A DNA stretch of 31,065 bases from a virus (lineage: Duplodnaviria; Caudoviricetes), in the IMG/VR virus record IMGVR_UViG_3300044820_000053, positions 1 through 31,065 of that record. One strand, 5' to 3'. Every line of letters begins with the position of its first letter. Positions within the stretch are counted from its first letter, which is position 1. Shown one piece after another: positions 1,129 through 30,361 of the stretch. The notes beneath the pieces are model-generated. The model was not told where the DNA came from. It worked only from the letters and a program-made list of their open reading frames with translations, and did no database searches. Both the position numbers and the translations under genes were made by a program.

Positions 1129-2349
1129 TCAATAGACGATCTTGTTCTGGTAGGCGACCGCCTCATCGTGACGGACGCCGATGTCGTGACGAGCGGTCAG
1201 CTTCACCACGGCCTCGCCGCGTTGGAACGCGGAAACGAGCGTGCCGGTGCTGTCCACATACGAAGCCTCGGTCGAATACTCGACCTCGATTGCGGACACC
1301 TCGCCGATCACGACGTCGGCCATGTTGGCGAAATACATCTCGGTCGTGTTGTTCACGGCACTGACCGTGAGGTTGATCGGGATGTTGTTCGTCACCGCCA
1401 CCGGGTAACCGCGGAGCTTCGGCAGCCCGTCGACCGTGGCCGAGTACACGTTGCCGGTGCGCAGCTCGGGGTAGATCGGGAAGCCGTTGGTGTTCAGCAA
1501 TTCGCGGAGGCTGATGAACGTGCGGTGTGCGATGATGTAGGCCGCTTCCATCAGCGCGATGTTGGCATTCGCCAGAAGGGTTTCCACGCCCTTCACATCC
1601 AAGAGGATGTTGGCGAAGTCGGTCGCGCTCGTTGCGGCGGAGCCCGACATGACGTTGGCTGGCAGCGTCCAGTTCTTGAGCCCCTTGGGGGTGTACTGGG
1701 TGCCGTCACCACGAATGAAGGCGGAGTCTTCGGCCTGCGCCATGCCGCGGGTTGCGTCACGGGTCAGGGTTTCGTCCACCGACACCGCAGCGGTCAACAG
1801 CAATTCCTTGCTGATGGCGACGGTGGTGTCGAGGATGCGGTGGGTCAGCTTAACGTCGCCAGTCTTGACGTCGGACGCCTTGCGCGTCGTGGACTCGCCG
1901 CGATAGCCCGCCGTGGCGCCGCCCGTGATTTTCGGGACAGACAGATTGCCGTTCGGCATCGGGTAGATGGTCGGGTTGAGGCGGCGGACCGCCGACAACG
2001 GGCGCAGGTACTCGATGACCTCGGTGGAGAGGTCTTCCGGCACGAAGGCGGCGCCGCCCGCTTCGGCCGCGGTGGTGAGCGCCTTCGAGATGAAGTCGTC
2101 TTCGAGGGTCCTCTTGGCGAAGGCTGCGGCCTTCTCCAGATCGCCCTTGCCGACAGCGACGGAACGGACATAGCGCCCGAACTGGATGCGTTTCTGCCGG
2201 GGCGTGCGTTCCGGCTGCTTATGATAGTCGCCCGACAGCAACTTCTCCTGGAAATCGGTGAAGCGCTTGGTGAACAGCGGTTCGACATTGTCCTTCACCG
2301 ACTTCGAGACGCTCTCATCGATGAGTTTCTGCAGTTCTTCGCGGGTCAT
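1129..2349 (-). CDS. Major capsid protein, HK97 family (406 aa) with N-terminal delta/scaffold domain
   Basis: GGAAFVPEDLSTEVIEYLR, VPKITGG, EDSAFIRGDGTQYTPKGL and LRGYPVAVTNNIP motifs; probable maturation site FISK|ALTT at about aa 89/90. Confidence 0.95.
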   Translation of the reverse strand: MTREELQKLIDESVSKSVKDNVEPLFTKRFTDFQEKLLSGDYHKQPERTPRQKRIQFGRYVRSVAVGKGDLEKAAAFAKRTLEDDFISKALTTAAEAGGAAFVPEDLSTEVIEYLRPLSAVRRLNPTIYPMPNGNLSVPKITGGATAGYRGESTTRKASDVKTGDVKLTHRILDTTVAISKELLLTAAVSVDETLTRDATRGMAQAEDSAFIRGDGTQYTPKGLKNWTLPANVMSGSAATSATDFANILLDVKGVETLLANANIALMEAAYIIAHRTFISLRELLNTNGFPIYPELRTGNVYSATVDGLPKLRGYPVAVTNNIPINLTVSAVNNTTEMYFANMADVVIGEVSAIEVEYSTEASYVDSTGTLVSAFQRGEAVVKLTARHDIGVRHDEAVAYQNKIVY

Positions 2350-2400
2350 AAAGTGGTTCCTTTCACTAGGAGTCGGGGCACCCGCTGCCCCTGTTGGTGG

Positions 2401-4266
2401 TCAGTCGATCTTGCCTTGGCCACGGCGGATCACGGCGGTCACGGCTTTGCTTGCGGAATCAGCGATCATCTCAGCCACGTCGGCCGCGGAGATGCCGTCC
2501 AGGATGTCGGACGAAGATGCGCGCTTCGTCTCCTCGATCTCGATGATGTGCTCGCCGTCCGCCTTAACCGGCGCCGGCGCGACGGCGCGCGCATCCAATT
2601 CTTCGCGGACAATCTTGCGCAACAGCTCCTCGAGCCCGCGTGTCGGGATCGCTTCGTCGGATGGCTGTTGCGGAGGGTTGGGATTGGCGGGCTGTTCTTT
2701 AGGCTTGCCGATGGACTGCGGATCCGGGTCATGGTTGTGCGCCTCGGCATCCCCGATTGTCACCGTGCCGTCTTCACCCCAGGTGACGCCGTGCATATGG
2801 GGTGGGTCGCCCGCCTCTTCGGTCTGGGTGTCGCCCTTGCCATATGCGTGTTCGTGGCTGTCAGGTCCGCCCTGCGTCTGGAACGTCTTGCCCGCATCGA
2901 CGTCGATCACGTCGTCTTCATCGGCCAGAGGGTCTTCGTCGTTGTCGGGATCGAGCGGAGCTTCCGGCGCATTCTCGTCCGCGCCTTCGTTTAGCGGCTC
3001 CATCTTCTCGGGGCCGAGTTCGAGCAAGCCGGTGTAGGGCGAGATTTCGGCAGGGTCGAGTTCGCCCCGATCGTATGTCAGCGTGACGTGCGGCTTGAAG
3101 TCCGCATAGTCCCACGACGCGCCGGCGGACCGGATTTCCTGATGACGGGCGGCCAGGCCATCGTGACCGAAACTCATCACCACCGCGCCCTTTTCACCCA
3201 GCGTGTGGCAGGCGAACGTCGCGCCTTCGATCTTGAGCGAGCTCTGGTCGGGCGTGATGGTCGACCAATCGACGGGATCGCGCGAATATGCCAGCGTGAC
3301 GTGCATGTCCTCGGGCTTGAGGGCCGACTTGAAGCCCTGATCCTTCATCCACTTGTGTATGTCAGCCGCGTTGTTAACGCAGCGGCTCATGTAGAGCGGG
3401 CGCGCATCGCCCGGGGCCTTCACCGGCGGCTGTTTCTTCTGCGCGGACCACAAGCCCTTGTCGCTTTTCGTCCATTCCAGGTCCGGCATCATGTCGAAAA
3501 CGACGGTGTCGCCTGCCTTCGCGCTCGGGTGACGGCGGTCGAGTTCGCCACGGACCAGATTGAAGATCGCCATTTCGGCTTTCCCGACTGGCGCGACATG
3601 GTGGACGATCGGGCTCTCGCCCTTGGCCGCGCGATAGAGCCGACGCAGGAACGCCTTTTCGGCCTCGCTGTGGGTGCTGTCCTCGAGCTGCTTGGCGCAC
3701 CATCCGATCATCGGCGCCGTGTCGATGCCCGAAGCCTTCGCGCGCGCGAGTGCCTGCGGGTTCGACGGCACGCCGACGTTTGACCATTCGAGCAACTCTT
3801 GCGAGCTGTAATCGACGCCCCAGTCCGTTTCGCTGCCCGAGCGCATGACGTATTCGATCGGCTTGAAGCCGACAGAGGCCGCATTGAGGAATCGGCCGAC
3901 ATACATGCGGAAGATCATAAACCCGAACGGGTTGAGGTCTTGGGGGGTATAGATCGCCGTCGAGACGAGGAGGTCCCCATCCATGCGGGTGTTCTCGGCA
4001 CGCGCCACCGGCGGGACCCTCTGGTCGTGGGCCCACAATACGACAGGGTTTTGCAGGTAGGCGTCGAGCTTCCATCCGCGCGGGTTGATGGTGTCGTTGT
4101 CGCGATCAAGCATCGCCGACGAAATGACAAAATCGATCGAGAGGTTGGCCTCATCGATCGACTTCAGCTTGGGAGCGAACAGACCGCGCACGATCGCGCC
4201 CGCCGGCGCGTTCTGCTGTTTGGCAAGCCGCGCGAATGCGTCGGCAGCGAACACATTACCGCCCAT
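2401..4266 (-). CDS. HK97-type prohead protease fused to an Acb1-like 2H phosphoesterase, an HxH-repeat domain and a scaffold-like tail (621 aa)
   Basis: aa ~33-175: DRDNDTI, NPVVLWAH (H80), ASVGF (S131), ELLEWSNVGVPSNP, matching a prohead protease. aa ~289-427: two HxT motifs, MHVTLAYS (H322) and PHVTLTYD (H393). aa ~460-515: HEH/HMH/HNH. Confidence 0.9.
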   Translation of the reverse strand: MGGNVFAADAFARLAKQQNAPAGAIVRGLFAPKLKSIDEANLSIDFVISSAMLDRDNDTINPRGWKLDAYLQNPVVLWAHDQRVPPVARAENTRMDGDLLVSTAIYTPQDLNPFGFMIFRMYVGRFLNAASVGFKPIEYVMRSGSETDWGVDYSSQELLEWSNVGVPSNPQALARAKASGIDTAPMIGWCAKQLEDSTHSEAEKAFLRRLYRAAKGESPIVHHVAPVGKAEMAIFNLVRGELDRRHPSAKAGDTVVFDMMPDLEWTKSDKGLWSAQKKQPPVKAPGDARPLYMSRCVNNAADIHKWMKDQGFKSALKPEDMHVTLAYSRDPVDWSTITPDQSSLKIEGATFACHTLGEKGAVVMSFGHDGLAARHQEIRSAGASWDYADFKPHVTLTYDRGELDPAEISPYTGLLELGPEKMEPLNEGADENAPEAPLDPDNDEDPLADEDDVIDVDAGKTFQTQGGPDSHEHAYGKGDTQTEEAGDPPHMHGVTWGEDGTVTIGDAEAHNHDPDPQSIGKPKEQPANPNPPQQPSDEAIPTRGLEELLRKIVREELDARAVAPAPVKADGEHIIEIEETKRASSSDILDGISAADVAEMIADSASKAVTAVIRRGQGKID

Positions 4267-4289
4267 CGGTTTGGTCTCCTTGGCTTTGT

Positions 4290-6395
4290 TCAGGGCTTGA
4301 GGGCCGCACGTTTCAGGGCGGCAATGGCAGCGCGACGTTGAATGGCGAATGCGCCGCGAAGTTCGGCTGTGAGTTGGCGCTCGAACGGAGCCTTGCGGCG
4401 CTCCCGAGCCTTCCAGTGGGTGACCCGCTTCTGTTCGGTGTCGAAGTACGACTTGCCGTCATCCTCCTCACCCTGGCCCTTGCGGAACACGGGCACGATT
4501 CCGCACCGGCAGTTGCAGTCTTCGGCCGGGTCACCAAACTCGCCCGGGTACGCGGCGCGGGCGCCCGATACTGGATCCTCGAAGTCCTCGTCCACACCCA
4601 CGACCTGGCCGTCGAGCTGGACATGCGAGGCATATTTCGTATCGCGGACAAGATCGTCGCGTGTCGAAAGCCATTCCTTGGCCGGGATACCCGCCTGTTC
4701 GAAGCCGGTCTGGGTCGCGAAGTTGGCCGCGCGATTGGTTTCCGTGCCAGCGATCAGCTCTGCGCGGGAGTCGCTCGCCTCATCGAACACGTCCTTGATG
4801 GCAGCGATCATGTCGTCGGTCGTGCCACCGCCGTGCCACACTTCCGAAAGGGCATCACCGATCTGCCGGCGTGTCGTCTCGTTCACCTTGCCGGTCAGGC
4901 GGTCGGCGGCGAACCGCTCCAGGAAATTGCCGACAGCCGGATCGGTCAGGTCGAAGCTGATCCCCATGCCAATGTCATCGACCGCGGATGCGCCGAACTC
5001 AGCGATCAGCGCCTTCATGGTGTCCTTGCTCGCGCGGACCAGGGTGGCGGGGTCGACCGCATCCAGGATCGCGTCGAACTCGTGAGGCTTCGGCGTGTTG
5101 CCTTTCACGAAGGCCTTCTTCGCGCCCGGGTCCTTGGGGTCTTGCTCGGCCGGTACGCTGCCGTGTGTCTCGCCCAGGGCATCCATCGGCTTCTCGGCCG
5201 GTGTCATGGTGTAGGGCATCATAAAGACCTTGCCCTCGCCATTCGGCAGTTCATCGAAGCCTGCCTCCTCGCGGTGCTCATCGACCTTGAAGGCCCACGG
5301 GCGGGCGTTCATCGACGCGCGGCGGCCCTCCGCATCGGCCGGGACCGGGTCGACAAAGTGCAGCCGCAACCGTTCATCGAAGTCCGGCACATACGACTTT
5401 TGCAGCGTCTCCCGCGCGCCCACACATAGCGGCCTGATGACCTCCTTGGTGAAGAGGTAATCGGCGCTGTCGATGGTGGCGCGGTTCGAGTTGGCGAGGA
5501 TGCCGACCATTTCGGGCGGGACGCCATAGGTGGTGACGATGATGTGCTCTTCGAGTTCGCGCAAGTCCTTGAACTGCATCTCGCGCATCGTGGCGCTGAG
5601 CTCCTTGACGGTCAAAGAACCGCTGGAAAACAAGGGTTTTCCGGCTCCCTTCACACCGCTGAACTTCTCGACCCACACTTCTTCAAGGCGCTTGCGTTCC
5701 GTGTCGAGAAGCGGCTGCTCGTCAGAGCCGGTCACAATGATGTCCGGTCGGGCGTTGTTCATAAAATAGTTGGCGGCATATCGGGCGGCCAACTCATCCG
5801 CGTTCAGTTCATCTTCCAGCGCCATCGCGGCGCCAGACCCGCGGTCGTAAGGATAGAGCGGATCGATGTCGCGGTGTGTCACCACTTCTGTCCGGTAGAC
5901 CTGGCCGACGAAGCCAGTCTGCGGGATGACCACATGATAAAACGGCCGGTTGGGCCGCGGCAGCGCCATGATCCAGTTGGGGACGAGCGGGACCAGCGCG
6001 ATCGGCGTCCCGAAGATATTGCGCTCCTTGGCAAAGTGCCACTCGCCAACGATCAGGTAGTGCAGCCACAAGGTCTTCATCACCTCGAAGCCGGACATGA
6101 TGTCGTTGCCCGCGTGCAGCGAATTGATGAGCGGATGGTCCTCGATCTTCTGGACGCCGGCAGTGGTCTTCGCCTCGACATACCATTCGATCTTCGCCAT
6201 CGCGGCGGCGATCTTCGACACCACCATGCGCAGGCGCGGCATCTGCGAATAGGCGAGCAAAAACTCCTTGGTGCCACGCTTCGGCGGAACGCGGCGAATG
6301 CTGGACAGCAGCTCGAGCTGCGACAGCTTCGTGCGGATCGATTGCCCGCCGATCACTCGCGCGGCTTGCGCGCGCATATCCGTCCACCAGCTCAC
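4290..6395 (-). CDS. Portal protein (HK97 family) fused to a MuF/SPP1 gp7-like minor head protein domain (~701 aa)
   Basis: GTG at 6395 overlaps the terL stop (GTGA) with AAGGAG SD. Portal motifs NYFMNNARPD, EMQFKDLR, YGVPPEMVG, SNRAT. C-terminal KEWLSTRD...H...DGQ...YPG...NCRC is the MuF signature. Confidence 0.9.
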   Translation of the reverse strand: MSWWTDMRAQAARVIGGQSIRTKLSQLELLSSIRRVPPKRGTKEFLLAYSQMPRLRMVVSKIAAAMAKIEWYVEAKTTAGVQKIEDHPLINSLHAGNDIMSGFEVMKTLWLHYLIVGEWHFAKERNIFGTPIALVPLVPNWIMALPRPNRPFYHVVIPQTGFVGQVYRTEVVTHRDIDPLYPYDRGSGAAMALEDELNADELAARYAANYFMNNARPDIIVTGSDEQPLLDTERKRLEEVWVEKFSGVKGAGKPLFSSGSLTVKELSATMREMQFKDLRELEEHIIVTTYGVPPEMVGILANSNRATIDSADYLFTKEVIRPLCVGARETLQKSYVPDFDERLRLHFVDPVPADAEGRRASMNARPWAFKVDEHREEAGFDELPNGEGKVFMMPYTMTPAEKPMDALGETHGSVPAEQDPKDPGAKKAFVKGNTPKPHEFDAILDAVDPATLVRASKDTMKALIAEFGASAVDDIGMGISFDLTDPAVGNFLERFAADRLTGKVNETTRRQIGDALSEVWHGGGTTDDMIAAIKDVFDEASDSRAELIAGTETNRAANFATQTGFEQAGIPAKEWLSTRDDLVRDTKYASHVQLDGQVVGVDEDFEDPVSGARAAYPGEFGDPAEDCNCRCGIVPVFRKGQGEEDDGKSYFDTEQKRVTHWKARERRKAPFERQLTAELRGAFAIQRRAAIAALKRAALKP

Positions 6396-7729
6396 GAGAA
6401 GCTCCTTGTCCGTTCGAGCCTCAGCTCTGTCAGCGCCCACACGAGGGCGTCGGCACGGTTCGGGGATCGGTCGCCCACATAACCGGCCACGGTGAAGTTG
6501 CAGAGTTCGTCTTCCAACTCGGGGAACCCCTGCAGGTGCTTGACGCGGCCTTGCTCGTAGAGCGCGGCGATCGGCTCGGCCCGCACCACCTTGCCTCGCG
6601 ACGCGGTGACAGAGCGGTATGGTGCCGTGCATCCTGCCGTCAGGATGACATGCTCGACCATCGCGCCGCCGAAGTTCTCCTCACCCACCACCCTATCGGC
6701 ATTGAAGAAAGCCGCGGCGTCTGCTGCGCGCTTGCCCCACCCGGCCGGAGAGAGCGAACAGGTGTAGTCCGCGATGACGTAACCCTTGTCGTCAGTCCCG
6801 CGACCCGCAACGACGATGCCAACGTCGTCTCGATTGTCCCCGCCTTTGGTGCCGGACGGATCGACCGCCACGACGACGCGCTGCATCTGGACGATGTTGG
6901 ACCGCTGCTCGGGCGTTAGCAGGGCTTGGTTGAGCATCGCGCGGGTCCACAGCGCGCCCTCGACATCTTCGAGGATTTCGGCGTTCAACTCCTGGCGGCC
7001 GAGCCGTGTGCCTTCGTACCGCCGGATGATTTCAGTGAAGAAGACCGGCGCCAGATTGATCCGGTTGTCGTAGGTGGTGCCGAAGGTGCGGACTGTGTCG
7101 GTGCGGGCCAGGATCGACTTCAAGAGCGGAATCGGCCGGGGCGTCGTGGTGATGATCTGCTGCGGCCGCTGCCCGAGGCGAAGGCCGAACTGCAGGTTAT
7201 CCCATGTCTCGTCAGGATAGCTCCATTTGCAGACCTCATCGGCCCATGCCGTGTCATGCTGCGGCCCGCGCAGCGTGTCCGGTTCCTCGGCCGAGTAGAG
7301 CGTGGCGATTGCGCCGTTGGGCCAGGTCAGGCGCCGCTTCGACGGCTCAAAGTGCGGCTTGTTCCAAGGCGGTGAGACAGCGAGCAGCCCGCTTTCGCCT
7401 TCGACCATGACGTCGCGGGCGTCGGCGGCGGTGGATGCCACAAGGGCAACGCGGCGAGAGATGCGATGCTCGACGCGATCCCTGATCCACTCGGCGCCGG
7501 TGCGCGTCTTACCCGTGCCGCGGCCGCCGAGGTAAATCCAGGATGTCCAGTCGCCTTCTGGCGCTACCTGTTCGGGCCGCGCCCAGGCGAGCCAATGATA
7601 GAGGATGGTTGCAGCTTCACGCGGGCTCAGCAGCATTATTGCCGCCATCCGATCCTCGGCGCTGAGCCCTTCGATCGATGATAGCAGCGAGTTTAGCCGT
7701 TGCGTCTGCAATTTCGACGGGTGCGCCAT
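6392..7729 (-). CDS. terL: Terminase large subunit
   Basis: Walker A GGRGTGKT, LRGPQHDTAWADE Walker B, ITTTP, nuclease motifs VVAVDPS and DALVWA. The start is uncertain (7735, 7729 or 7648). Confidence 0.95.
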   Translation of the reverse strand: MAHPSKLQTQRLNSLLSSIEGLSAEDRMAAIMLLSPREAATILYHWLAWARPEQVAPEGDWTSWIYLGGRGTGKTRTGAEWIRDRVEHRISRRVALVASTAADARDVMVEGESGLLAVSPPWNKPHFEPSKRRLTWPNGAIATLYSAEEPDTLRGPQHDTAWADEVCKWSYPDETWDNLQFGLRLGQRPQQIITTTPRPIPLLKSILARTDTVRTFGTTYDNRINLAPVFFTEIIRRYEGTRLGRQELNAEILEDVEGALWTRAMLNQALLTPEQRSNIVQMQRVVVAVDPSGTKGGDNRDDVGIVVAGRGTDDKGYVIADYTCSLSPAGWGKRAADAAAFFNADRVVGEENFGGAMVEHVILTAGCTAPYRSVTASRGKVVRAEPIAALYEQGRVKHLQGFPELEDELCNFTVAGYVGDRSPNRADALVWALTELRLERTRSFS

Positions 7730-8129
7730 TCTCACCTGTGAGTTCCAGGCGCTCGGACCACCCGAGGTTCTTGCCGCGCGTCTTCATAATGAAGCAGCAA
7801 GCGGCAACGTCGGGCACGACTTCGGCACGGAGCTGCTTGCCGTCTTTGTCGTACTGGGCGGGCGCTCCGACCGCCATGCGCCCAAGCGAACGAACAACGG
7901 CCGAAATGAAATCCATCTGCGCAAATTCGAGCTGGGCCGCGAAGTGCTTGCGCAACGTCTTCTCGCTGACGCCGATGCGCCTTGCGATGTCCACCTCGCC
8001 GTATCCGCACTCGACATAGGCGCGGACCATGCCGCGCTGTTCATCGGTGGGCTCAAAACGAGGACGCCCGCGTTGGCGTTTAGCCTGCGGGCTTGTCGGT
8101 TCCTGATTGTCCTGCATCGGTGTGCTCAC
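7617..8129 (-). CDS. terS: Terminase small subunit (HTH)
   Basis: GRPRFEPTDEQR...DIARRIGVSEKTLRKHF HTH, ACCFIMKTRG..GWSE and ELTGENGAPV motifs; lies directly upstream of terL. Confidence 0.85.
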   Translation of the reverse strand: MSTPMQDNQEPTSPQAKRQRGRPRFEPTDEQRGMVRAYVECGYGEVDIARRIGVSEKTLRKHFAAQLEFAQMDFISAVVRSLGRMAVGAPAQYDKDGKQLRAEVVPDVAACCFIMKTRGKNLGWSERLELTGENGAPVEIADATAKLAAIIDRRAQRRGSDGGNNAAEPA

Positions 8130-9258: not shown

Positions 9259-9687
9259 TCAGCCGGCCGTCGCCGTCAGCATCCATTTTTGCTTCAAGTG
9301 ATAGTCCATCCGCTCCGCCAGCAGATTGATCGTCGCCTGATCGTCTTCCGGCTCGGCCACGGTCTGCGCAAACAGGATCGTGGTGATGACGGCTGCATGG
9401 CCCGCGATGAGGTCGTTGACCATGTCCTGCCACGACGCAGCGCTGCGCTGGGTCGCGTCGAGTTCGGTGCGTGTGGCGAAGTCGGGCGGGATGACCTCAC
9501 CCAGTGCGCGCACATGCTCCGCGATCTTGTCGACCTCTTCGAACAGCGCATCGTACTGATCATTGAACATCTTGTGCAGCGCGGGGAAGTTCGGGCCGGT
9601 GACGTTCCAGTGGTAGAGGTGCGTGACACGGTAAAGCGCGAAGGTGTCGGCCAGCAGGTCGATGAGGCTATCGGCAACCTTGGACAT
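9259..9687 (-). CDS. dps: Dps family mini-ferritin (142 aa)
   Basis: HLYHWNVTGPNFPALHKMF...QY...VDKIAEHVRALG and terminal WML; ferroxidase His/His/Asp/Glu present; GGAGG SD. Confidence 0.92.
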   Translation of the reverse strand: MSKVADSLIDLLADTFALYRVTHLYHWNVTGPNFPALHKMFNDQYDALFEEVDKIAEHVRALGEVIPPDFATRTELDATQRSAASWQDMVNDLIAGHAAVITTILFAQTVAEPEDDQATINLLAERMDYHLKQKWMLTATAG

Positions 9688-9733: not shown

Positions 9734-10375
9734 TTAACCCGTCACCGTTCGGTCAGCGGCCCTCTCTCTGGGTTGTCTCTTCGGATACGGCTTTGCGAGC
9801 AGCGCGACCCGCTTCCGCATCGCCGCGTCGAGCGGCATCAGGTACTTGTGCCGGACCAGGCCGGTGACGCGCTCAACGTTGGGGTCCACGTTCTCGCGCA
9901 GCCATTCCATGTCCGCGCGGCCATATCGCGAGCTGAGCGTGCGGGCGTGTGTCAGCTTGCCGTGGACCTTGAACGAATAGCTGTCGGCCGCGCCCTCGTA
10001 TATCCAGCCGCCCGCCTGATAGATGCCGCCGTGGTGGTTCTGTTCGCCTGCAGCGTAGGACACGACCAACCGCAGCCCGGGCGAGAACTTCGTTAGCAGC
10101 CTGAGGGCAATCGCCACGATGCGGCTAACAGGGGCGTCGTGCTTTTGCAGCGCCACGCGGGTCAGCTCGCACACCTCGGTCTGCTGCAGGTCGTAGGGCT
10201 TGCCAATCGACACCGTCGCACCACGGCTGAAGATGACCACGCCCTTGAACGTCGCGTCTTCCCAGACGCCCAGCTTGATCGTGCGGCCTGCGGGCATACA
10301 TCCGCTGTAGTGCCAGTGTTCGCAGGCGTAGAGCGCGGCAGCGTATGTCGCCCAGTCGAGACGGAGCGTGCTCAT
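9734..10375 (-). CDS. mom: Mom-like (phage Mu Mom family, GNAT fold) adenine-modification enzyme
   Basis: HWHYS, GVVIF, CELTRVAL, VSRIVAIALRLL, VVSYA..EQNHHGGIYQAGGWIYEG motifs; ATGA-coupled to the upstream ParB-N gene. Confidence 0.8.
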   Translation of the reverse strand: MSTLRLDWATYAAALYACEHWHYSGCMPAGRTIKLGVWEDATFKGVVIFSRGATVSIGKPYDLQQTEVCELTRVALQKHDAPVSRIVAIALRLLTKFSPGLRLVVSYAAGEQNHHGGIYQAGGWIYEGAADSYSFKVHGKLTHARTLSSRYGRADMEWLRENVDPNVERVTGLVRHKYLMPLDAAMRKRVALLAKPYPKRQPRERAADRTVTG

Positions 10376-10884
10376 CGGCGCGCCCCCATCTCGAATGTCT
10401 TACCGCAGTGCGGACAAGTGACCTCGCTGAGATGGTCGAGCGGTTTTGATGTCGGCTCGCCGGCCGGGGTGAAGTTGGCCGCTTGCGGCAGCTCGATCGG
10501 ATCGAAGCCGGTCAGCGCCAGGTCGAAGCCCGCCACGTCGAGCGCCTGCAGCTCGAGCTCCAAGGCGGCGGGGATCCATGTTGCCTCTTCGTGCGTGCGG
10601 TTGTCCGCAAGCCGGTATGCCCTGATCTGCTCTGGGCTGAGGCCGTGCGCCACATGCACGGGCACGCGCTTGAGCTTGAGCTTCTTGGCGGCCAGCAGCC
10701 TTGTGTGGCCGACAACGATTTCGTCAGCCTCATCGACCACGATGGGCTGTCGCCAGCCGAACTCTTTGATGGACTTGGCGACTTTCTCAATCGCTCGGTC
10801 GGATATTTCGCGGGGATTGCCCGGGTACGGGCGCACGTCCCCGATCGGCCGCCATTCGACGGCCAGGGATTCGCTCTCTTGCAT
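10372..10884 (-). CDS. ParB/Sulfiredoxin N-terminal domain protein with C-terminal CPHCG Zn knuckle
   Basis: PYPGNPR, SIKEFGWRQPIVVD, IVVGHTRLLAA, YRLADNR, VTCPHCG. Confidence 0.9.
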   Translation of the reverse strand: MQESESLAVEWRPIGDVRPYPGNPREISDRAIEKVAKSIKEFGWRQPIVVDEADEIVVGHTRLLAAKKLKLKRVPVHVAHGLSPEQIRAYRLADNRTHEEATWIPAALELELQALDVAGFDLALTGFDPIELPQAANFTPAGEPTSKPLDHLSEVTCPHCGKTFEMGARR

Positions 10885-11820: not shown

Positions 11821-12405
11821 TTAAGTCCTTGCGCTGTCTTTCTTCTCGAACGGCTTGACGGGCAGGATGTCGGCCTCATTCAGCCGCACGGGCATCTTGT
11901 TTGGGCCGAGTTCCGCAATGACTGAGCCTGGCCGCACGTCCGCGATCGCGCCCTGGTATCCGGCGAAAGGATGGTCGGGGCCGACTGCGACGATTTCGCC
12001 GAGCCGGTAGAGGCTTTCCTTCCGGCGCACACGACGGATTGCGACCTCGTAGTCCGCGATCATGTCCTGGCGAAGCCCTTCCACGACGCAGGCCGGGATT
12101 TCGCTCGGATTGAGGTCACCACCCCGGCTGAGGCTGAGGGAGATGGCGCCGGAAAAGCCGAAGGTCTGCTTGACGGTGACGAAGTTCTGCTGACGCTTGG
12201 TGTCGGCCTCGATGCGGGCGTCATCGATGGCGACCCACACATAGGGCGACAGCCGCAGTCGCGGTTCCGGCCATGCCCGATTGCCGGTTTTCATGCGGAC
12301 GAACGTCATGGCGATGAATGTCTCGTAGCCACGATCGCCCAGGTCGCGCGCGAAGCGCACGTCCATGTTCGGCTCAGCCGCGATCACATACCAACGCTTC
12401 GTCAT
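11821..12405 (-). CDS. NusG/RfaH-family transcription antiterminator (NGN + KOW) in the lambda Q position
   Basis: RWYVIAAEP, L.DRGYETF, LSPYVWV, PSEIPACVVEGL; KOW-like GEIVAV...PFAGYQGAI. Confidence 0.82.
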   Translation of the reverse strand: MTKRWYVIAAEPNMDVRFARDLGDRGYETFIAMTFVRMKTGNRAWPEPRLRLSPYVWVAIDDARIEADTKRQQNFVTVKQTFGFSGAISLSLSRGGDLNPSEIPACVVEGLRQDMIADYEVAIRRVRRKESLYRLGEIVAVGPDHPFAGYQGAIADVRPGSVIAELGPNKMPVRLNEADILPVKPFEKKDSART

Positions 12406-14763: not shown

Positions 14764-15627
14764 TCACCTGCCAGCCATCATCTTGTTGAGCGGAAGGCCG
14801 GCCGTGCGGATTGCCAGATTGACAGCGTCGGTCAGGACCGCATGAAAACTCGACCACTCGGGTCCGCCATGCGTCGCCTTGCGCGCCCGGGCCTTGGTGC
14901 TGAGCGCCGCGATGCCGCCACGGTCAGCCAGCTTGCCACCGTAGAGCTTTGGGTCCCGCGCCCATTGTGGATTGACGGATAACGTCTTGGCGGCGCCGAT
15001 GATCGCGGCAGCGCCGATGCCAGCTTCCGGCTCGGCCGCGCGAAGCAGCTTGAAGGCGGCGATCAGGATGGCGTCGTTGTAGTTCTTCCGTACCTGACGG
15101 ATCGAACCCAGCGCCATCGTCTCGCCCGGATCCGGGTCCATCTTCGGGTAAGGCGCAATCGTCACCCCTCCCCTCGCACAAAGGTCAACGATTTCCCGCG
15201 CGGCGCCGTCGCCGGCGGCGACGTTTGCGCGGAAGCTCTGAAGCGGATGGATGCGGGTGACGTTGCCGTTGATCGCTGCGAAGGCGCGCGCCTCGGCCTC
15301 ACGCCCGCCTTTCAGGATCAGGCACGGCACCTTATCGATGCCGCCGTGTAGCATGGCCGCAGTGGCGCGGTGCTGGCCATCGATGACGGCATAACGGGAC
15401 GGGGTGCGGCGGGATACAACAAGTGTACCGAATTGGAGCCAGGAAAAGGCCTCGATCATGCGGCGGATGTTGGCCTTGCCGCTGTCGAGAATGGCCCGCT
15501 GATAAGCCGGATCGACGTAGAGCTGCGAGAGAGGCAACCATGCCAATTCGCCCTTGTCGCCAATGTCGGACGCCGGCACGGGCCTTTGCGCGAACTGGAG
15601 CTTTTGGAGGGGTTGGAGGTCGCTCAT
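14764..15627 (-). CDS. ParB/Srx-fold protein with DGQHR motif (DUF6551-like)
   Basis: LYVDPAYQR, FSW..FG.LVV, YAVIDGQHR, EARAFAAIN. Confidence 0.8.
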   Translation of the reverse strand: MSDLQPLQKLQFAQRPVPASDIGDKGELAWLPLSQLYVDPAYQRAILDSGKANIRRMIEAFSWLQFGTLVVSRRTPSRYAVIDGQHRATAAMLHGGIDKVPCLILKGGREAEARAFAAINGNVTRIHPLQSFRANVAAGDGAAREIVDLCARGGVTIAPYPKMDPDPGETMALGSIRQVRKNYNDAILIAAFKLLRAAEPEAGIGAAAIIGAAKTLSVNPQWARDPKLYGGKLADRGGIAALSTKARARKATHGGPEWSSFHAVLTDAVNLAIRTAGLPLNKMMAGR

Positions 15628-16343
15628 GCTGCCCTCAGTTGTTTGGCTTTGGCGCGCAGAAACGCGGCGAGCTTCGAGACGGCGCGCTTCTCGATCTGGT
15701 CGATGCGCTGACGGGACACGCCCATCTCAAGCGCCAGCTCGTTCATGGTCGGCTGCTCGTCTTGGTCGCTGAAAAATCGACGCTCGATGACCGCGCGTTC
15801 GTTCGGCTGGAGCCCGGCGATCGCGCTCATCACCACGGCAGATTTCCGCTGCCGGTCGATCGACGCCGCCAGTTCGGTTTCATCGGGCGCGTCCCGATCG
15901 GGGATTGCCTGCATAAGCGACCGGCCCGATGGTGTGGTCGCATCGAGCGGGGCATCGAACTGCAGCGAGGCGTTGCGCAATTGCTCCGCGAACATCCGCT
16001 TGCCGCGGGTCGTGGTCGGATGCGAGACGATGCTGACGTTCCGCATGACGTGGCGGTAAAGCGCGGTTCGCATCCACCAATGGGCATAGGACGCGAAACG
16101 CATCCCGCGCTCGGCATCGAAGGACTCGGCTGCCCTAAGCATCGCCAGGAGCGCTTCTTGAAGAAGATCCTCGCGGTTCCCCATCTTGGCGTATTTGCGC
16201 GCCATGTGGGCGGCGAGCGGAATGTGCGCTTCGATGAGCTGGTCGCGTGCAACGCGATCACCGGCGAGCATCCGGGCGACGATGACCTTCTCTTCGTCTT
16301 CGGTGAGAAACCGGTGCGGCCTGGCTGTTAGAATGTCCTTCAC
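15624..16343 (-). CDS. Phage sigma-70-family sigma factor, RpoH (sigma32)-like (239 aa)
   Basis: GTG 16343 overlaps the RuvC-like stop. Region 1.2 FLTEDEE; region 2 ARDQLIEAH...EDLLQEA...FDAERGMRFASYAHWW; region 4 TMNELALEMGVSRQRIDQIEKRA. Confidence 0.88.
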   Translation of the reverse strand: MKDILTARPHRFLTEDEEKVIVARMLAGDRVARDQLIEAHIPLAAHMARKYAKMGNREDLLQEALLAMLRAAESFDAERGMRFASYAHWWMRTALYRHVMRNVSIVSHPTTTRGKRMFAEQLRNASLQFDAPLDATTPSGRSLMQAIPDRDAPDETELAASIDRQRKSAVVMSAIAGLQPNERAVIERRFFSDQDEQPTMNELALEMGVSRQRIDQIEKRAVSKLAAFLRAKAKQLRAA

Positions 16344-16861
16344 CTGTTGATCCCCCCGAAAAGTGGTGTGGAGGCGAGCGCGCGGCTCGGCTGTTTCAGC
16401 GCGAGCGCGTAATCGAGCAGCGCCAGGGCGTCGGCATCGTTGTCGTCTTTGGTCGGCCAACCGCGGACGCGGCACTGGGCGACGGTGGCCTTCTTCCGCA
16501 GCTCGCTCTTTCGCGGATAGCCCCGGCAGAGGAAGTGCGTGCAGATTTCGGATATGTTCGCCTCGCGGCACACCAGCTTGTGGTCCAGTGCCACCAGCTC
16601 GGTCAGGCCAGCGAGCGAGTACAGCTTGCGGAGTGTGCTGATGCTCGTTTTATCGGGCAGGATCGGGGACTCGAAGATCACTTCGCCCGGCCGGTTGCGC
16701 GCGATCGTGCTTTCGAGCCACTTGCGGAAATATGCGAGGAACATGCCGACATCCTCGCCCGTCTTCGGCAGCTGATAGCTGCTGTGCTCCACCACCCCTT
16801 CGGGGATGGAGCCGCAGGCCCAGCCGGTACAGCTGGCCAAATCGAGGGCGAGGATGCGCAT
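16340..16861 (-). CDS. RuvC-like Holliday junction resolvase
   Basis: MRILALDLASCTGWA, VIFESP and DDNDADALALL catalytic acidic motifs. Confidence 0.85.
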   Translation of the reverse strand: MRILALDLASCTGWACGSIPEGVVEHSSYQLPKTGEDVGMFLAYFRKWLESTIARNRPGEVIFESPILPDKTSISTLRKLYSLAGLTELVALDHKLVCREANISEICTHFLCRGYPRKSELRKKATVAQCRVRGWPTKDDNDADALALLDYALALKQPSRALASTPLFGGINR

Positions 16862-26253: not shown

Positions 26254-26712
26254 GTGATGTCTGTTCCCGAATGCCCCTACTGCGGGCGGCCGGCCAAGGC
26301 TGTTGACGGGACCTCGATTTACCCGAACCGCCCCGAGCTGGCCCACAAGATGTTCTGGCGCTGCGATCCGTGCAGCGCATGGGTCGGATGCCACGCTGGC
26401 ACGATGGTCGCCCTCGGGCGCCTGGCTAACGCCGAGCTACGCGCCGCCAAGCAACGCGCACATGTGGCCTTTGATCCGCTGTGGCAGGGCAAAATGAAGC
26501 GCGACGGCTGCTCGAAGGCCGAGGCGCGGTCGGCCGGGTATCAGTGGCTTGCTGCCCAACTCGGCATCGAAACGCAGGCCTGCCACATCGGCATGTTTGA
26601 CGTCGATCAGTGCCAGCGCGTGGTCGAGGTCTGCACGTCCATTTCCCGAAATCACCAGCAGCCGCGGGACTCCGCGACCGGCGCGCTGCCTCAAACCACA
26701 GCCGCGGAATAA
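26254..26712 (+). CDS. DUF3268-family zinc-finger protein
   Basis: CPYCG, C..CSAWVGCH, LGRLANAELR, AH..FDPLW, YQWLA..LGI...CHIGMFD. Confidence 0.85.
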   Translation: MMSVPECPYCGRPAKAVDGTSIYPNRPELAHKMFWRCDPCSAWVGCHAGTMVALGRLANAELRAAKQRAHVAFDPLWQGKMKRDGCSKAEARSAGYQWLAAQLGIETQACHIGMFDVDQCQRVVEVCTSISRNHQQPRDSATGALPQTTAAE

Positions 26713-26726
26713 GGAAGGACCACGCA

Positions 26727-28460
26727 ATGACGAATACGGTCACAATCGACCAGCTACGGCCGGGCTACGAATACCCTGGCGGCAGCATCAACAGTCGAAA
26801 GGAATACACGCGCGATCAGATCAACAGCCGAAAGGAGTCGATTCTGGCATTCGGCATCCTGCAATCGCTGCTGGTCTGTCCGGCTCCTGGCAAAGACGGC
26901 ACACCCTATTATGTCGGCGCTGGCGGCCTGCGCCTCGTGGCCACCCAAGAGCTCGTCAAGGAAAAGAAGTTACCACCGACCTTTGAGGTCCCGATCCTCG
27001 TCAAAGGGGACTGGGATGCGGTCATGGCCCTGTCGGCCTCGATCGAGGAGAACCGGTCTCCGGTCCCGCCTCACCCCGTCGAGACGTTCGAGCAGTTCTC
27101 CGAAGTGAACAACCGCGGCAAGTCAGTCGAGGATATGGCGAAGCTCTACGGCATGGGCGTCAATGAAATCCGCGGTGTTCTCGCTTTGGGTCGGCTCTCT
27201 CCGACTATCCGCAAGGCGTGGAAGTCTGCCGAGTTCGGCGCTGAGTCCGCCAAGGCGTTCTTGTTCGGAAAGGATCACGCGCAGCAGGACGCCGTCTATA
27301 AGCGCCTGAAGAGCAGCGGGAAGTGGCAACTCAATCAGCCGCAGACAATCCGGCAGATGCTCGTGGGCGACCAGCGCATGGCGCCGGGTTGGCTGAACTT
27401 CGTCGGTCGCGAGGCATACGAGGCCGCTGGTGGTGGCATCAAAGAAGACCTGTTCGGCAAGCAGGACGCCGTGGGCGACATGGACCTGCTGAAAAAGCTG
27501 GTTGACGAGAAGATCGAAAAGAAATGCTCCGATCTGGTTGCGGGCGGATGGTCGTGGGCCAAACCGGATGACGCGCTCGACGCGAACGCGCGGCACTACT
27601 GGCCGAAAATCGGCAAGGGCGCGAACAGTTCGAAGGACGATAAGGCCAAGTCCGGTTGCATCGTGAACGTCAACCATCAGGGCCAGTTCGATATCGCCTT
27701 TGGCATCTGCAAGCCCGGCACGAAGGCGGCAAAACAGGCAAAACCCGGCAGCGGGAAGAAGGCCACCAAGCCAAAGGAAGGCGGTCCCGTTATCAGCAAT
27801 GCGATCGCGCAGCGCATGAGCGAATGGCTGACCTACGCCACCGGAGACGTGATCGCCGTCTCAAAGCCGGAAGTGATTCTTGCCCTTGCGCTGGCCGGGA
27901 TCGCCAGCACCGACCAAACAGTTGCGATGACGGAGCGCGGGCTTATCACGAAGCGCGGGGATCGCGATTACGACAAGGAAATTCCCGAGTTCGCGGACCT
28001 GTTCAAGGGTCTCCTGAAGCATCCGCTGAAGGACTTGCAGGCCCGGTTCGCGCGGGTCGTAGGCAACGCGTTGGACTTCCAGACCAACCACGCGGAGGAA
28101 AAGCCGTTCGAGGGCCGCCCCGAGCCGCTTGAAATTGCCAAGGCTATTGACGGCGACAAGCTCAACGCAGCGATCCGTCAGCGTTTCGATGCGGCCGACT
28201 ACTTCAAATCGGTCAGCGCGAAGGTCCGTCTTGCGGCGATCGAGGAAGCCATGGGCTCCGATCACGCCCGCACGGCTGCCAAGCTGAAGGGTGCCGAACA
28301 GGCGGCGTTCTGCGTCGAGAACCTGCCGAAGACGAAATGGCTGCCGCCTGAGCTGCGCACGTCGCACTACGACGGCCCGGCAGCGAAGAAGGCCACCGTC
28401 ACCAAGCTCAAACCAAAGGCGAAGACCACGAAAAAAGCCGCCCACAAGAAGGCGGCCTGA
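26727..28460 (+). CDS. ParB/RepB/Spo0J-family protein with long C-terminal extension (577 aa)
   Basis: AAGGA SD; SILAFGILQSLLV, AGGLRL, SIEEN, HTH SVEDMAKLYG, Y...GG.I.EDLF; Lys/Ala-rich tail. Confidence 0.85.
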   Translation: MTNTVTIDQLRPGYEYPGGSINSRKEYTRDQINSRKESILAFGILQSLLVCPAPGKDGTPYYVGAGGLRLVATQELVKEKKLPPTFEVPILVKGDWDAVMALSASIEENRSPVPPHPVETFEQFSEVNNRGKSVEDMAKLYGMGVNEIRGVLALGRLSPTIRKAWKSAEFGAESAKAFLFGKDHAQQDAVYKRLKSSGKWQLNQPQTIRQMLVGDQRMAPGWLNFVGREAYEAAGGGIKEDLFGKQDAVGDMDLLKKLVDEKIEKKCSDLVAGGWSWAKPDDALDANARHYWPKIGKGANSSKDDKAKSGCIVNVNHQGQFDIAFGICKPGTKAAKQAKPGSGKKATKPKEGGPVISNAIAQRMSEWLTYATGDVIAVSKPEVILALALAGIASTDQTVAMTERGLITKRGDRDYDKEIPEFADLFKGLLKHPLKDLQARFARVVGNALDFQTNHAEEKPFEGRPEPLEIAKAIDGDKLNAAIRQRFDAADYFKSVSAKVRLAAIEEAMGSDHARTAAKLKGAEQAAFCVENLPKTKWLPPELRTSHYDGPAAKKATVTKLKPKAKTTKKAAHKKAA

Positions 28461-28552
28461 CGGTCATGGGGCGGCGGCTTTCGAGATCGGCCGGGTGAAT
28501 GCCGGCAGGTCGGCGCCTTCCCCGCCCCACCACCTAACAGGACAGACAGACG

Positions 28553-30361
28553 ATGACATTCCCGATCCCCGACATAGCGCTGGCGCAGCACATTGCGGTG
28601 CTGGGGAAAACTGGCAGCGGCAAGACATCGACGGCGAAGCTGGCCGTCGAGCATGTGGTAAAGCAAGAAGCCCGGGTCTGCATTCTCGACCCGATCAAAT
28701 CCGACTGGTGGGGTCTGACCTCCAGCGCGAACGGCGAGCGCGCCGGGCTTCCCTTCCATATCCTCGGCGGACCCCGTGGCCATGTCGCGCTTCACCCGTC
28801 GGCCGGTAAGGCGGTCGGTGAAATTGTGGCGAGCGGCGAGCTGCCGTTGTCGATCATCGACATGGCGAATTTCAACCCCGGCGGCCAGGCGCAGTTTTTT
28901 GTCGATTTCGCACCGACGCTTTTGCGGCGAATGCGTGGCGTGGTCTATCTCGTCATCGAGGAAGCGCATCTGTTCGCCCCGAAGGAGCGCTCGGGGATCG
29001 GCGCCGAGAATATGTCGATCCACTGGGCGAAGATGCTGGCGACGGCGGGGCGCTCAAAAGGCGTGCGCCTCATCGTCGTCACCCAGCGCACCCAGGCATT
29101 GCACAACGCGCTGCTTGGCAGTTGCGACACCATGATTGCACACCGACTCACGGCGCCGGCGGACCAGGAGCCGGTCATCAAGTGGCTTAAGGCCAACACC
29201 GACAAGGTGACGGTCGAGAAGGTCGCCGCCTCGTTGTCCTCGCTGCCGACCGGCAGCGGATGGCTTTGCTCGGGCGAGGCCAAGGTTTTCGAGCTGGTCC
29301 GGTTCCCGCGGATCAGCACCTACGACAACACGGCAACGCCGACCGGAAAGGGTATCGACCACGACGTCAAGACCGCCGCGGTAGATCAAGAGAAGTTGCG
29401 CACGATCATCGGCACGGCTGTGAAGGAAGCCGAGGCGAACGATCCGCGCGCGCTGAAGGCGGAAGTGGCGCGCCTCTCGGCCGAGCTGCGCCGAGCATCC
29501 GCCGCACCGACTCCCTCAACTGTGGGCCAGAAATCGGAAGCTGCGGCGCTAAAGGAGCGCGAGCGCATCTTCGCCGCTGGCGTCAAGCAGGGCCGCGAAG
29601 AGGCCCAGACGGAATTTGCCGCCAGGGTGGCGACATTCCAGGCGGCAGTCACCGACGCGAACCAAGCGATCAACCCGCTGCTGCTCCAGCTTCGTAAGGA
29701 TGTGATGCACGCCGACGATGTGTTCCAGTCGCATATTCGGAACCTGACGAAGAGTGTCCCGGCGACGTCCATCAAGAACTTGCCTGCCACCGCCGCTTCG
29801 CCGCCCGCGCTGCCGTCGCCGGTTCAACCCGCGAGGCCCAAGCCCCCGGCATTGGTTCCGACAATTACCCGCGAGGCGACGGGACTGCCCGGCAATCAGC
29901 AGCGCGTTCTCGATTCCCTTCAGACGTGGCAACGCATGGGGCATCGCGCACCGTCGAATGCGCAGGTGGCCTGGCTGGCGAACTACTCCCCGACTTCCAC
30001 GTCGTACACCAATCCGCGCGGCGCGCTGAAATCGTCCGGCCTGGTCGAGTATCCGTCACCCGATCGGGTCGCGCTGACCGACCAGGGCGCACATCTCGCC
30101 GGGCAGATCGACCTCGGCGGTGACCTGCTCGCCTATGTGCTGAACCAGCTCCCGGGCAACGAGCGCCGCGTCCTCGAGGCTGTCGTCGCGGCCTATCCCA
30201 ACGCTGACAGCAACGATGCCGTCGCAGAGCGCGCCAACTACAGCGCGTCCTCGACCAGCTACACGAACCCGCGCGGTTCGTTGAAATCGAAAGAGCTCAT
30301 CACCTATCCGGCAGGCGGCATGGTCCGCGCCGTCGATTGGCTCTTTGAAGGAGGACGGTGA
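28553..30361 (+). CDS. HerA/FtsK-family ATPase (DUF87-type) with two C-terminal winged-helix-like repeats (602 aa)
   Basis: HIAVLGKTGSGKT Walker A, ILDP, LVIEEAH Walker B, GRSKG Arg finger, TQR sensor; tandem 88-aa repeat. Confidence 0.85.
   Translation: MTFPIPDIALAQHIAVLGKTGSGKTSTAKLAVEHVVKQEARVCILDPIKSDWWGLTSSANGERAGLPFHILGGPRGHVALHPSAGKAVGEIVASGELPLSIIDMANFNPGGQAQFFVDFAPTLLRRMRGVVYLVIEEAHLFAPKERSGIGAENMSIHWAKMLATAGRSKGVRLIVVTQRTQALHNALLGSCDTMIAHRLTAPADQEPVIKWLKANTDKVTVEKVAASLSSLPTGSGWLCSGEAKVFELVRFPRISTYDNTATPTGKGIDHDVKTAAVDQEKLRTIIGTAVKEAEANDPRALKAEVARLSAELRRASAAPTPSTVGQKSEAAALKERERIFAAGVKQGREEAQTEFAARVATFQAAVTDANQAINPLLLQLRKDVMHADDVFQSHIRNLTKSVPATSIKNLPATAASPPALPSPVQPARPKPPALVPTITREATGLPGNQQRVLDSLQTWQRMGHRAPSNAQVAWLANYSPTSTSYTNPRGALKSSGLVEYPSPDRVALTDQGAHLAGQIDLGGDLLAYVLNQLPGNERRVLEAVVAAYPNADSNDAVAERANYSASSTSYTNPRGSLKSKELITYPAGGMVRAVDWLFEGGR

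Follow-up and report, generated by a model that had tools for sequence, protein, structure and literature searches.

The window, by which we mean the whole stretch of DNA analysed, is a virus record of 31,065 bases with an estimated completeness of 34%. Its minus strand carries a head module in the order terminase, portal-MuF, fusion gene and major capsid protein, where the fusion gene joins a prohead protease, an Acb1-family domain and a scaffold-like tail in one protein. The features are the following.

2401..4266, minus strand: protease-Acb1-scaffold fusion gene (P0001), a single uninterrupted open reading frame of 621 aa
Upstream of the ATG at 4266, minus strand: ribosome-binding site of the AAGGAG type, seen by eye in the sequence
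3625..4170, minus strand: prohead (HK97/S78-like) serine protease, aa 33 to about 185, with a helical hairpin to aa 214 (PHROG 80, conserved residues, AF2, Foldseek)
4029, 3876 and 3789, minus strand: protease residues H80, S131 and E160 (alignment)
3427..3582, minus strand: small predicted alpha/beta domain, aa 229-280, within the insert (pLDDT 84-95; aligns with P0014)
2980..3399, minus strand: Acb1-family 2H phosphoesterase, aa 290-429 (Pfam PF23474, phmmer, Foldseek)
3303 and 3090, minus strand: first nucleotides of H322 and H393, in HxT motifs at aa 322-324 and 393-395 (sequence)
2872..2979, minus strand: acidic linker, aa 430-465 (38% D+E over aa 429-465)
2722..2871, minus strand: six-histidine module with three HxH pairs, H471-H512, common to relatives without Acb1
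2401..2706, minus strand: Pro-rich stretch, then a scaffold-like tail with G-K-I-D at its end (terminal motif)
1129..2349, minus strand: HK97-fold major capsid protein (profile matches)
4290..6395, minus strand: portal fused to MuF, without Acb1 (Pfam PF04860 and PF04233)
6392..8129, minus strand: terminase large and small subunits (profile matches)

A sequence-only reading of this DNA had proposed that a prohead protease is fused here to an Acb1-like domain, and intact protease residues together with the PF23474 match in one reading frame demonstrate that the fusion is real. The five residues that it had named (H80, S131, E160, H322 and H393) all lie where it had put them. The extent it had given, 2986-4170, falls within the reading frame, which is longer at both ends (4266-2401); likewise, it had recognized the protease and Acb1 parts of the protein and had overlooked the C-terminal 190 aa and the small domain at aa 229-280.

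Throughout the window, the only Acb1 match is that of the fusion gene. Base composition is uniform across the domains of the fusion (GC 0.625-0.649, GC3 0.75-0.82), which, together with the occurrence of the same architecture in a second protein, P0014, rules out an assembly chimera or a chance reading frame. A Logan contig from run X1 covers 2200-4500 with neither differences nor joints; X1 is the probable source run, so this support is not independent. Genes for a repressor, RecT and SSB suggest a temperate phage, and a probable alphaproteobacterial host is indicated by the best matches of SSB and sigma factor, the lineage of the SSB models being taken here as alphaproteobacterial. The portal-MuF gene probably starts at GTG 6395, where it overlaps the terminase stop. 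Dps/ferritin-like, Mom-family DNA-modification and ParB-like genes (9259-9687 and 9734-10884, minus strand) lie directly upstream of the terminase, and a NusG-like gene (11821-12405, minus strand) and a sigma-70 factor most like RpoH (15624-16571, minus strand) lie upstream of the late region. On the plus strand, 26610-30361 encodes a ParB-family protein and, after it, a HerA-like ATPase of 602 aa.

The protease domain is that of a prohead protease, divergent but intact. Residues 53-183 match PHROG 80, 'head maturation protease' (E 4e-8), and H80, S131 and E160 are invariant in all 62 aligned rows of protease relatives, the role of E160 being assumed from this conservation. A homologue search with aa 30-215 returned 61 other proteins, 52 of which match Peptidase_S78 (E<=1e-3). 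The fusion protein itself has no match to PF04586 in Pfam at E 0.01 and scores 13 bits with TIGR01543, below the cut-off of 59; judged by sequence, the protease is a divergent subgroup that misses the curated Pfam and NCBIfam cut-offs. A PDB sequence search with the protease gave zero matches. Modelled with AlphaFold2 (pLDDT 90), aa 1-285 have T4 gp21 (5jbl, E 3e-4) as their best Foldseek match, and the position of the gene between portal and capsid genes is that expected for a prohead protease.

Beyond the protease, the protein is assembled around a variable slot. The syntenic loci L066 and L025 have the protease, the histidine module and the tail and lack about 190 residues, comprising the small domain and Acb1; hence, the Acb1 domain is an insert. 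An AAA ATPase occupies the slot in 3 of 61 relatives (P0047, P0058 and P0066), and that of the related proteases P0023, P0025, P0049 and others holds shared unnamed stretches. P0014 has the same insert as P0001 (43% identity over 463 aa), and in both the small alpha/beta domain accompanies Acb1. Searches of the ESM Atlas with aa 224-285 and with aa 455-525 yielded no named match. The six-histidine module, likely metal-binding, is conserved in the scaffold part of the protease clade (L066:1030-2496, L025:2319-3845, L187, L196, L214, L176 and P0055), and no family name was found for it. A terminal motif of the type G[RK][VLIA] is present in 39 of 64 relatives, and the tail presumably has a scaffold role. 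Within this protease clade the Acb1 fusion is rare: it occurs in 1 of 61 proteins, in none of 80 viral loci, of which 76 have a complete 3' end, and in none of 79 metagenome loci (67 complete), two sets that partly overlap. Locus searches based on a single protein returned 0 and 3 loci.

As the sequence-only reading had proposed, the inserted domain belongs with Acb1, judged by profile, sequence and predicted fold. Pfam Acb1 (PF23474) matches aa 290-429 with 123 bits (cut-off 27, E 8e-36), while LigT_PEase reaches only 25 bits over 30 aa of the same protein and 2_5_RNA_ligase2 stays under its cut-off. Among solved structures, phmmer found the C-terminus of the Pam3 portal (8hds, E 9e-19) and FBB1 Acb1 (7t26, E 7e-11). 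The AF2 model of the domain (pLDDT 95), ranked by Foldseek alone, is closest to FBB1 Acb1 7t26 (E 2e-9, TMq 0.72), followed by BCSR5 PDE-9, LigT (E 1e-4) and, far below, AKAP18 (E 0.016). An identity as LigT, 2',3'-CPDase or AKAP7, the grouping that would have spoken against the sequence-only reading, is ruled out, since in profile and fold these rank below Acb1.

The catalytic core of the domain is complete. Residues H322, T324, H393 and T395 align with H44, T46, H113 and T115 of T4 Acb1 (57B), and Y292, Y387 and E423 are the counterparts of T4 Y12, F107 and E141; the roles of the HxT/HxT tetrad and of E141 were described by Hobbs et al. 2022 (PMC9117128). E423 sits in E-P-L, as does the adenine-reading E141 of T4, and 34 of 38 family-conserved positions are retained in the domain. 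The predicted nuclease activity is likely, yet not assured.

Head-fused Acb1 domains are abundant, with 2143 clusters related to the domain at E<=0.001. Carriers were examined in the best 149 of these clusters. Pfam, run on 135 of them (all but the 14 longest), assigned a portal to 25, MuF to 7 and a protease-type domain to 18, the latter being XkdF-type (9), DUF2213 (7), which we take to be a prohead protease, and S78 (2). Local profiles, seeded from the same 149-protein set, detected protease-type domains of four subfamilies in 25 of the 149, one match being partial. The rest comprise fragments and polyvalent proteins that bear ADP-ribosyltransferase or NUDIX domains. In bacterial genomes, 80 of 101 prophage loci gave portal 70, protease 6 and other 4, a portal excess that partly reflects one common prophage portal family, each sample having been drawn by likeness to the query domain. 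The statement in the sequence-only reading that Acb1-like domains occur on portal and head proteins is thereby borne out; its view of the protease fusion as something special is weakened by a survey in which portals, MuF, polyvalent proteins and four protease subfamilies all serve as carriers. Among operons that share the order portal, MuF and DUF2213 protein, L104 and L132 have the Acb1 domain on the portal, and L094 and L112 have it on the DUF2213 protein. Among the proteins surveyed, the protease comes first only in P0001, P0014, P0095 and P0158, the last two found from the Acb1 side. P0005, P0008, P0010 and L142 combine Acb1, NUDIX and protease in a single chain, in two domain orders.

On the tree, the 29 protease-borne Acb1 domains require 11 changes, which points to many carrier switches, while a single clade stands unrejected (p-AU 0.09, 70 rows, with P0139 and 93 'other' rows omitted); a single clade of the four protease-first proteins is likewise not rejected (p-AU 0.55). 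The case for repeated fusion derives from the differing protease subfamilies and domain orders, not from the trees. A cultured-phage candidate for a protease fusion, gp129 of Roseobacter phage DSS3P8 (L001:4992-5444), proved to be a stand-alone 150-aa Acb1 despite its annotation as 'prohead protease, HK97 family', a name probably inherited from a fused protein. Roseophages MD18 and RcXuper have similar stand-alone Acb1 genes. In the 60 phage records covered, out of 674, the only other protease annotation is that of the DSS3P8 relative vB_RpoS-V10. As to a link with host CBASS, a SMODS match was present in one of only five lysogens bearing protease fusions, which says little.

From the established architecture, catalytic residues, insert nature and carrier spread we infer the functional steps, and on balance we lean towards an Acb1-family nuclease that gains late timing and dose from being carried on a head protein, the protease being one of several interchangeable carriers. 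Late in infection, the inserted domain would likely degrade CBASS cyclic nucleotides that contain adenine. It would be produced with the head genes, in the amounts needed for head assembly, and, from unassembled protein and proheads alike, would act on the diffusible signal. At maturation the protease may release the domain, and some of it may remain in the virion. The benefit would be timing and dose, gained by riding any head protein, with no specific partnership with the protease. Since prophage portal carriers outnumber protease carriers by 70 to 6 (n=80), generic tethering to head proteins is favoured over a specific pairing of trigger and antidote.

Such a pairing, put forward in the sequence-only reading, in which Acb1 is kept on the protease to remove the signal where protease or scaffold activates the CD-NTase, is nonetheless the alternative that fares best, and we consider it unlikely. 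The notion that prohead proteases activate CBASS, also part of the sequence-only reading, agrees with the report that CD-NTases are activated through cleavage by a prohead protease, T4 gp21, with an activation loop in ~24% of CD-NTases (Hobbs and Kranzusch 2026, bioRxiv 10.64898/2026.03.04.709575); the available portions of that preprint do not mention an Acb1 fusion. Furthermore, a scaffold domain was by itself sufficient to activate a type I CBASS system (bioRxiv 2023.05.21.541620, on a T1-like protease-scaffold), in a text whose accessible part names no Acb1 fusion either. The fusion protease is predicted to have a T4 gp21-like fold, and Acb1 is joined, in either order, to proteases of four subfamilies, so that the fusion recurs. 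Against the pairing, portal carriers are equally common or far commoner, the fusion is rare in its own protease clade, and with a diffusible signal, co-expression would already match the timing.

The second alternative concerns the enzyme itself: its specificity may be narrowed or altered, or the domain may be decaying, so that it is no broad CBASS nuclease and may target another signal or spare a Panoptes decoy. The T4 set of four base-stacking aromatics with a C-terminal lid is incomplete here, with W74 replaced by L356 or H354 and W147 by A429, and the lid window after A429 is devoid of any aromatic. In addition, F351 takes the place of a family Arg (Arg in 153 of 163 relatives), and none of the 163 rows has diverged further than the Acb1 domain of the sister fusion P0014, which retains 23 of 38 conserved positions. 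According to the available text of Doherty et al. (bioRxiv 2025.08.21.671373), the T4 Acb1 lid was required in a cell assay, certain viral 2H groups cleaved 0 of 18 signals, and the lid of PDE-9 matters by substrate: the lid-less enzyme still cut 3'3'-cGAMP, and the lid mattered more for 2'3'-c-di-AMP. However, the same source attributes specificity to the 2H core, and in our domain the four catalytic residues and the E141 equivalent are all intact. The column of T4 W74 is Leu in 140 of 163 relatives, and the lid column has Trp in 99, Tyr or Phe in 36 and no aromatic in 27, one being too short; an aromatic-free lid is hence a common natural state. We regard altered specificity as quite unlikely.

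A further reading is a self-masking maturation protease, in which a lid-less, narrower Acb1 is tethered to the protease-scaffold that trips CBASS, proximity offsetting the weaker enzyme, so that the signal would be destroyed where it arises and Panoptes-type decoys would be spared. We judge this very unlikely; if true, the fusion to four protease subfamilies would represent convergent selection for coupling.

Protease-scaffold proteins are mostly removed during head maturation, which argues against a last alternative, that the protease frees the folded domain in the head and the domain stays in the virion to be ejected into the next host. Although raised in the sequence-only reading, in print for 2H domains on portals and MuF proteins (PMC5512222, PMC9503650) and compatible with the likely flexible, cleavable segments flanking the Acb1 domain and with the Pam3 virion portal entry, whose sequence contains such a domain, delivery is highly improbable here, as CBASS is reported to act late in infection (bioRxiv 10.64898/2026.03.04.709575).

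Now that prohead proteases are reported to activate CBASS directly, natural protease-Acb1 fusions offer a ready test of whether a phage benefits from having the antidote attached to the trigger or merely from its late and plentiful production, and the present gene, having near relatives both with and without the insert, fits such a test; its lid variant is also relevant to a CBASS-Panoptes trade-off. A predicted counter-defence role of 2H domains fused to portals or MuF proteins is already in print. Such fusions were described by Iyer et al. 2017 (PMC5512222), who proposed that the 2H domains degrade nucleotides used in defence; packaging and injection were later added in an account that, in its accessible part, names the capsid-processing peptidase as a carrier of Nudix domains, not of 2H (Iyer et al. 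2022, PMC9503650). Extra domains, 'proteases' among them, were noted in 13 of 75 2H proteins (Doherty et al., bioRxiv 2025.08.21.671373). The literature covered describes neither a protease-Acb1 fusion, although Doherty et al. may list one in their Supplementary Table 2, nor a test of a head-fused Acb1 form.

Among known systems, Acb1 of T4 (57B) and Erwinia phage FBB1 (7T26/7T27, PF23474, PMC9117128) shares with our domain the 2H fold, the HxT/HxT motifs and the equivalents of Y12, F107 and E141. However, the domain is only ~24% identical to T4 Acb1, lacks the W147 lid aromatic, is not aromatic at the W74 position, and is embedded in a head protein, whereas T4 Acb1 stands alone. The 2H domains fused to portal or MuF (Pam3 portal 8HDS, Pseudomonas phage phiPSA1, Rhizobium RHEph phages) belong to the same Acb1 subfamily, at <=47% identity, and likewise reside on a head-assembly protein; here, the carrier is a protease-scaffold and the domain lies between protease and tail. 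T4 gp21 and the T1-like protease-scaffold, both CBASS triggers, resemble the fusion in protease fold and protease-scaffold layout, yet the fusion protease is 10-11% identical to gp21. Finally, Xanthobacter WP_394099815.1, Bradyrhizobium WP_079602012.1 (with NUDIX) and the DUF2213 fusions of Bosea and Neorhizobium prophages also combine Acb1 and a prohead-protease-type domain in a single chain, but with Acb1 first and with other protease subfamilies, in the opposite order to P0001.
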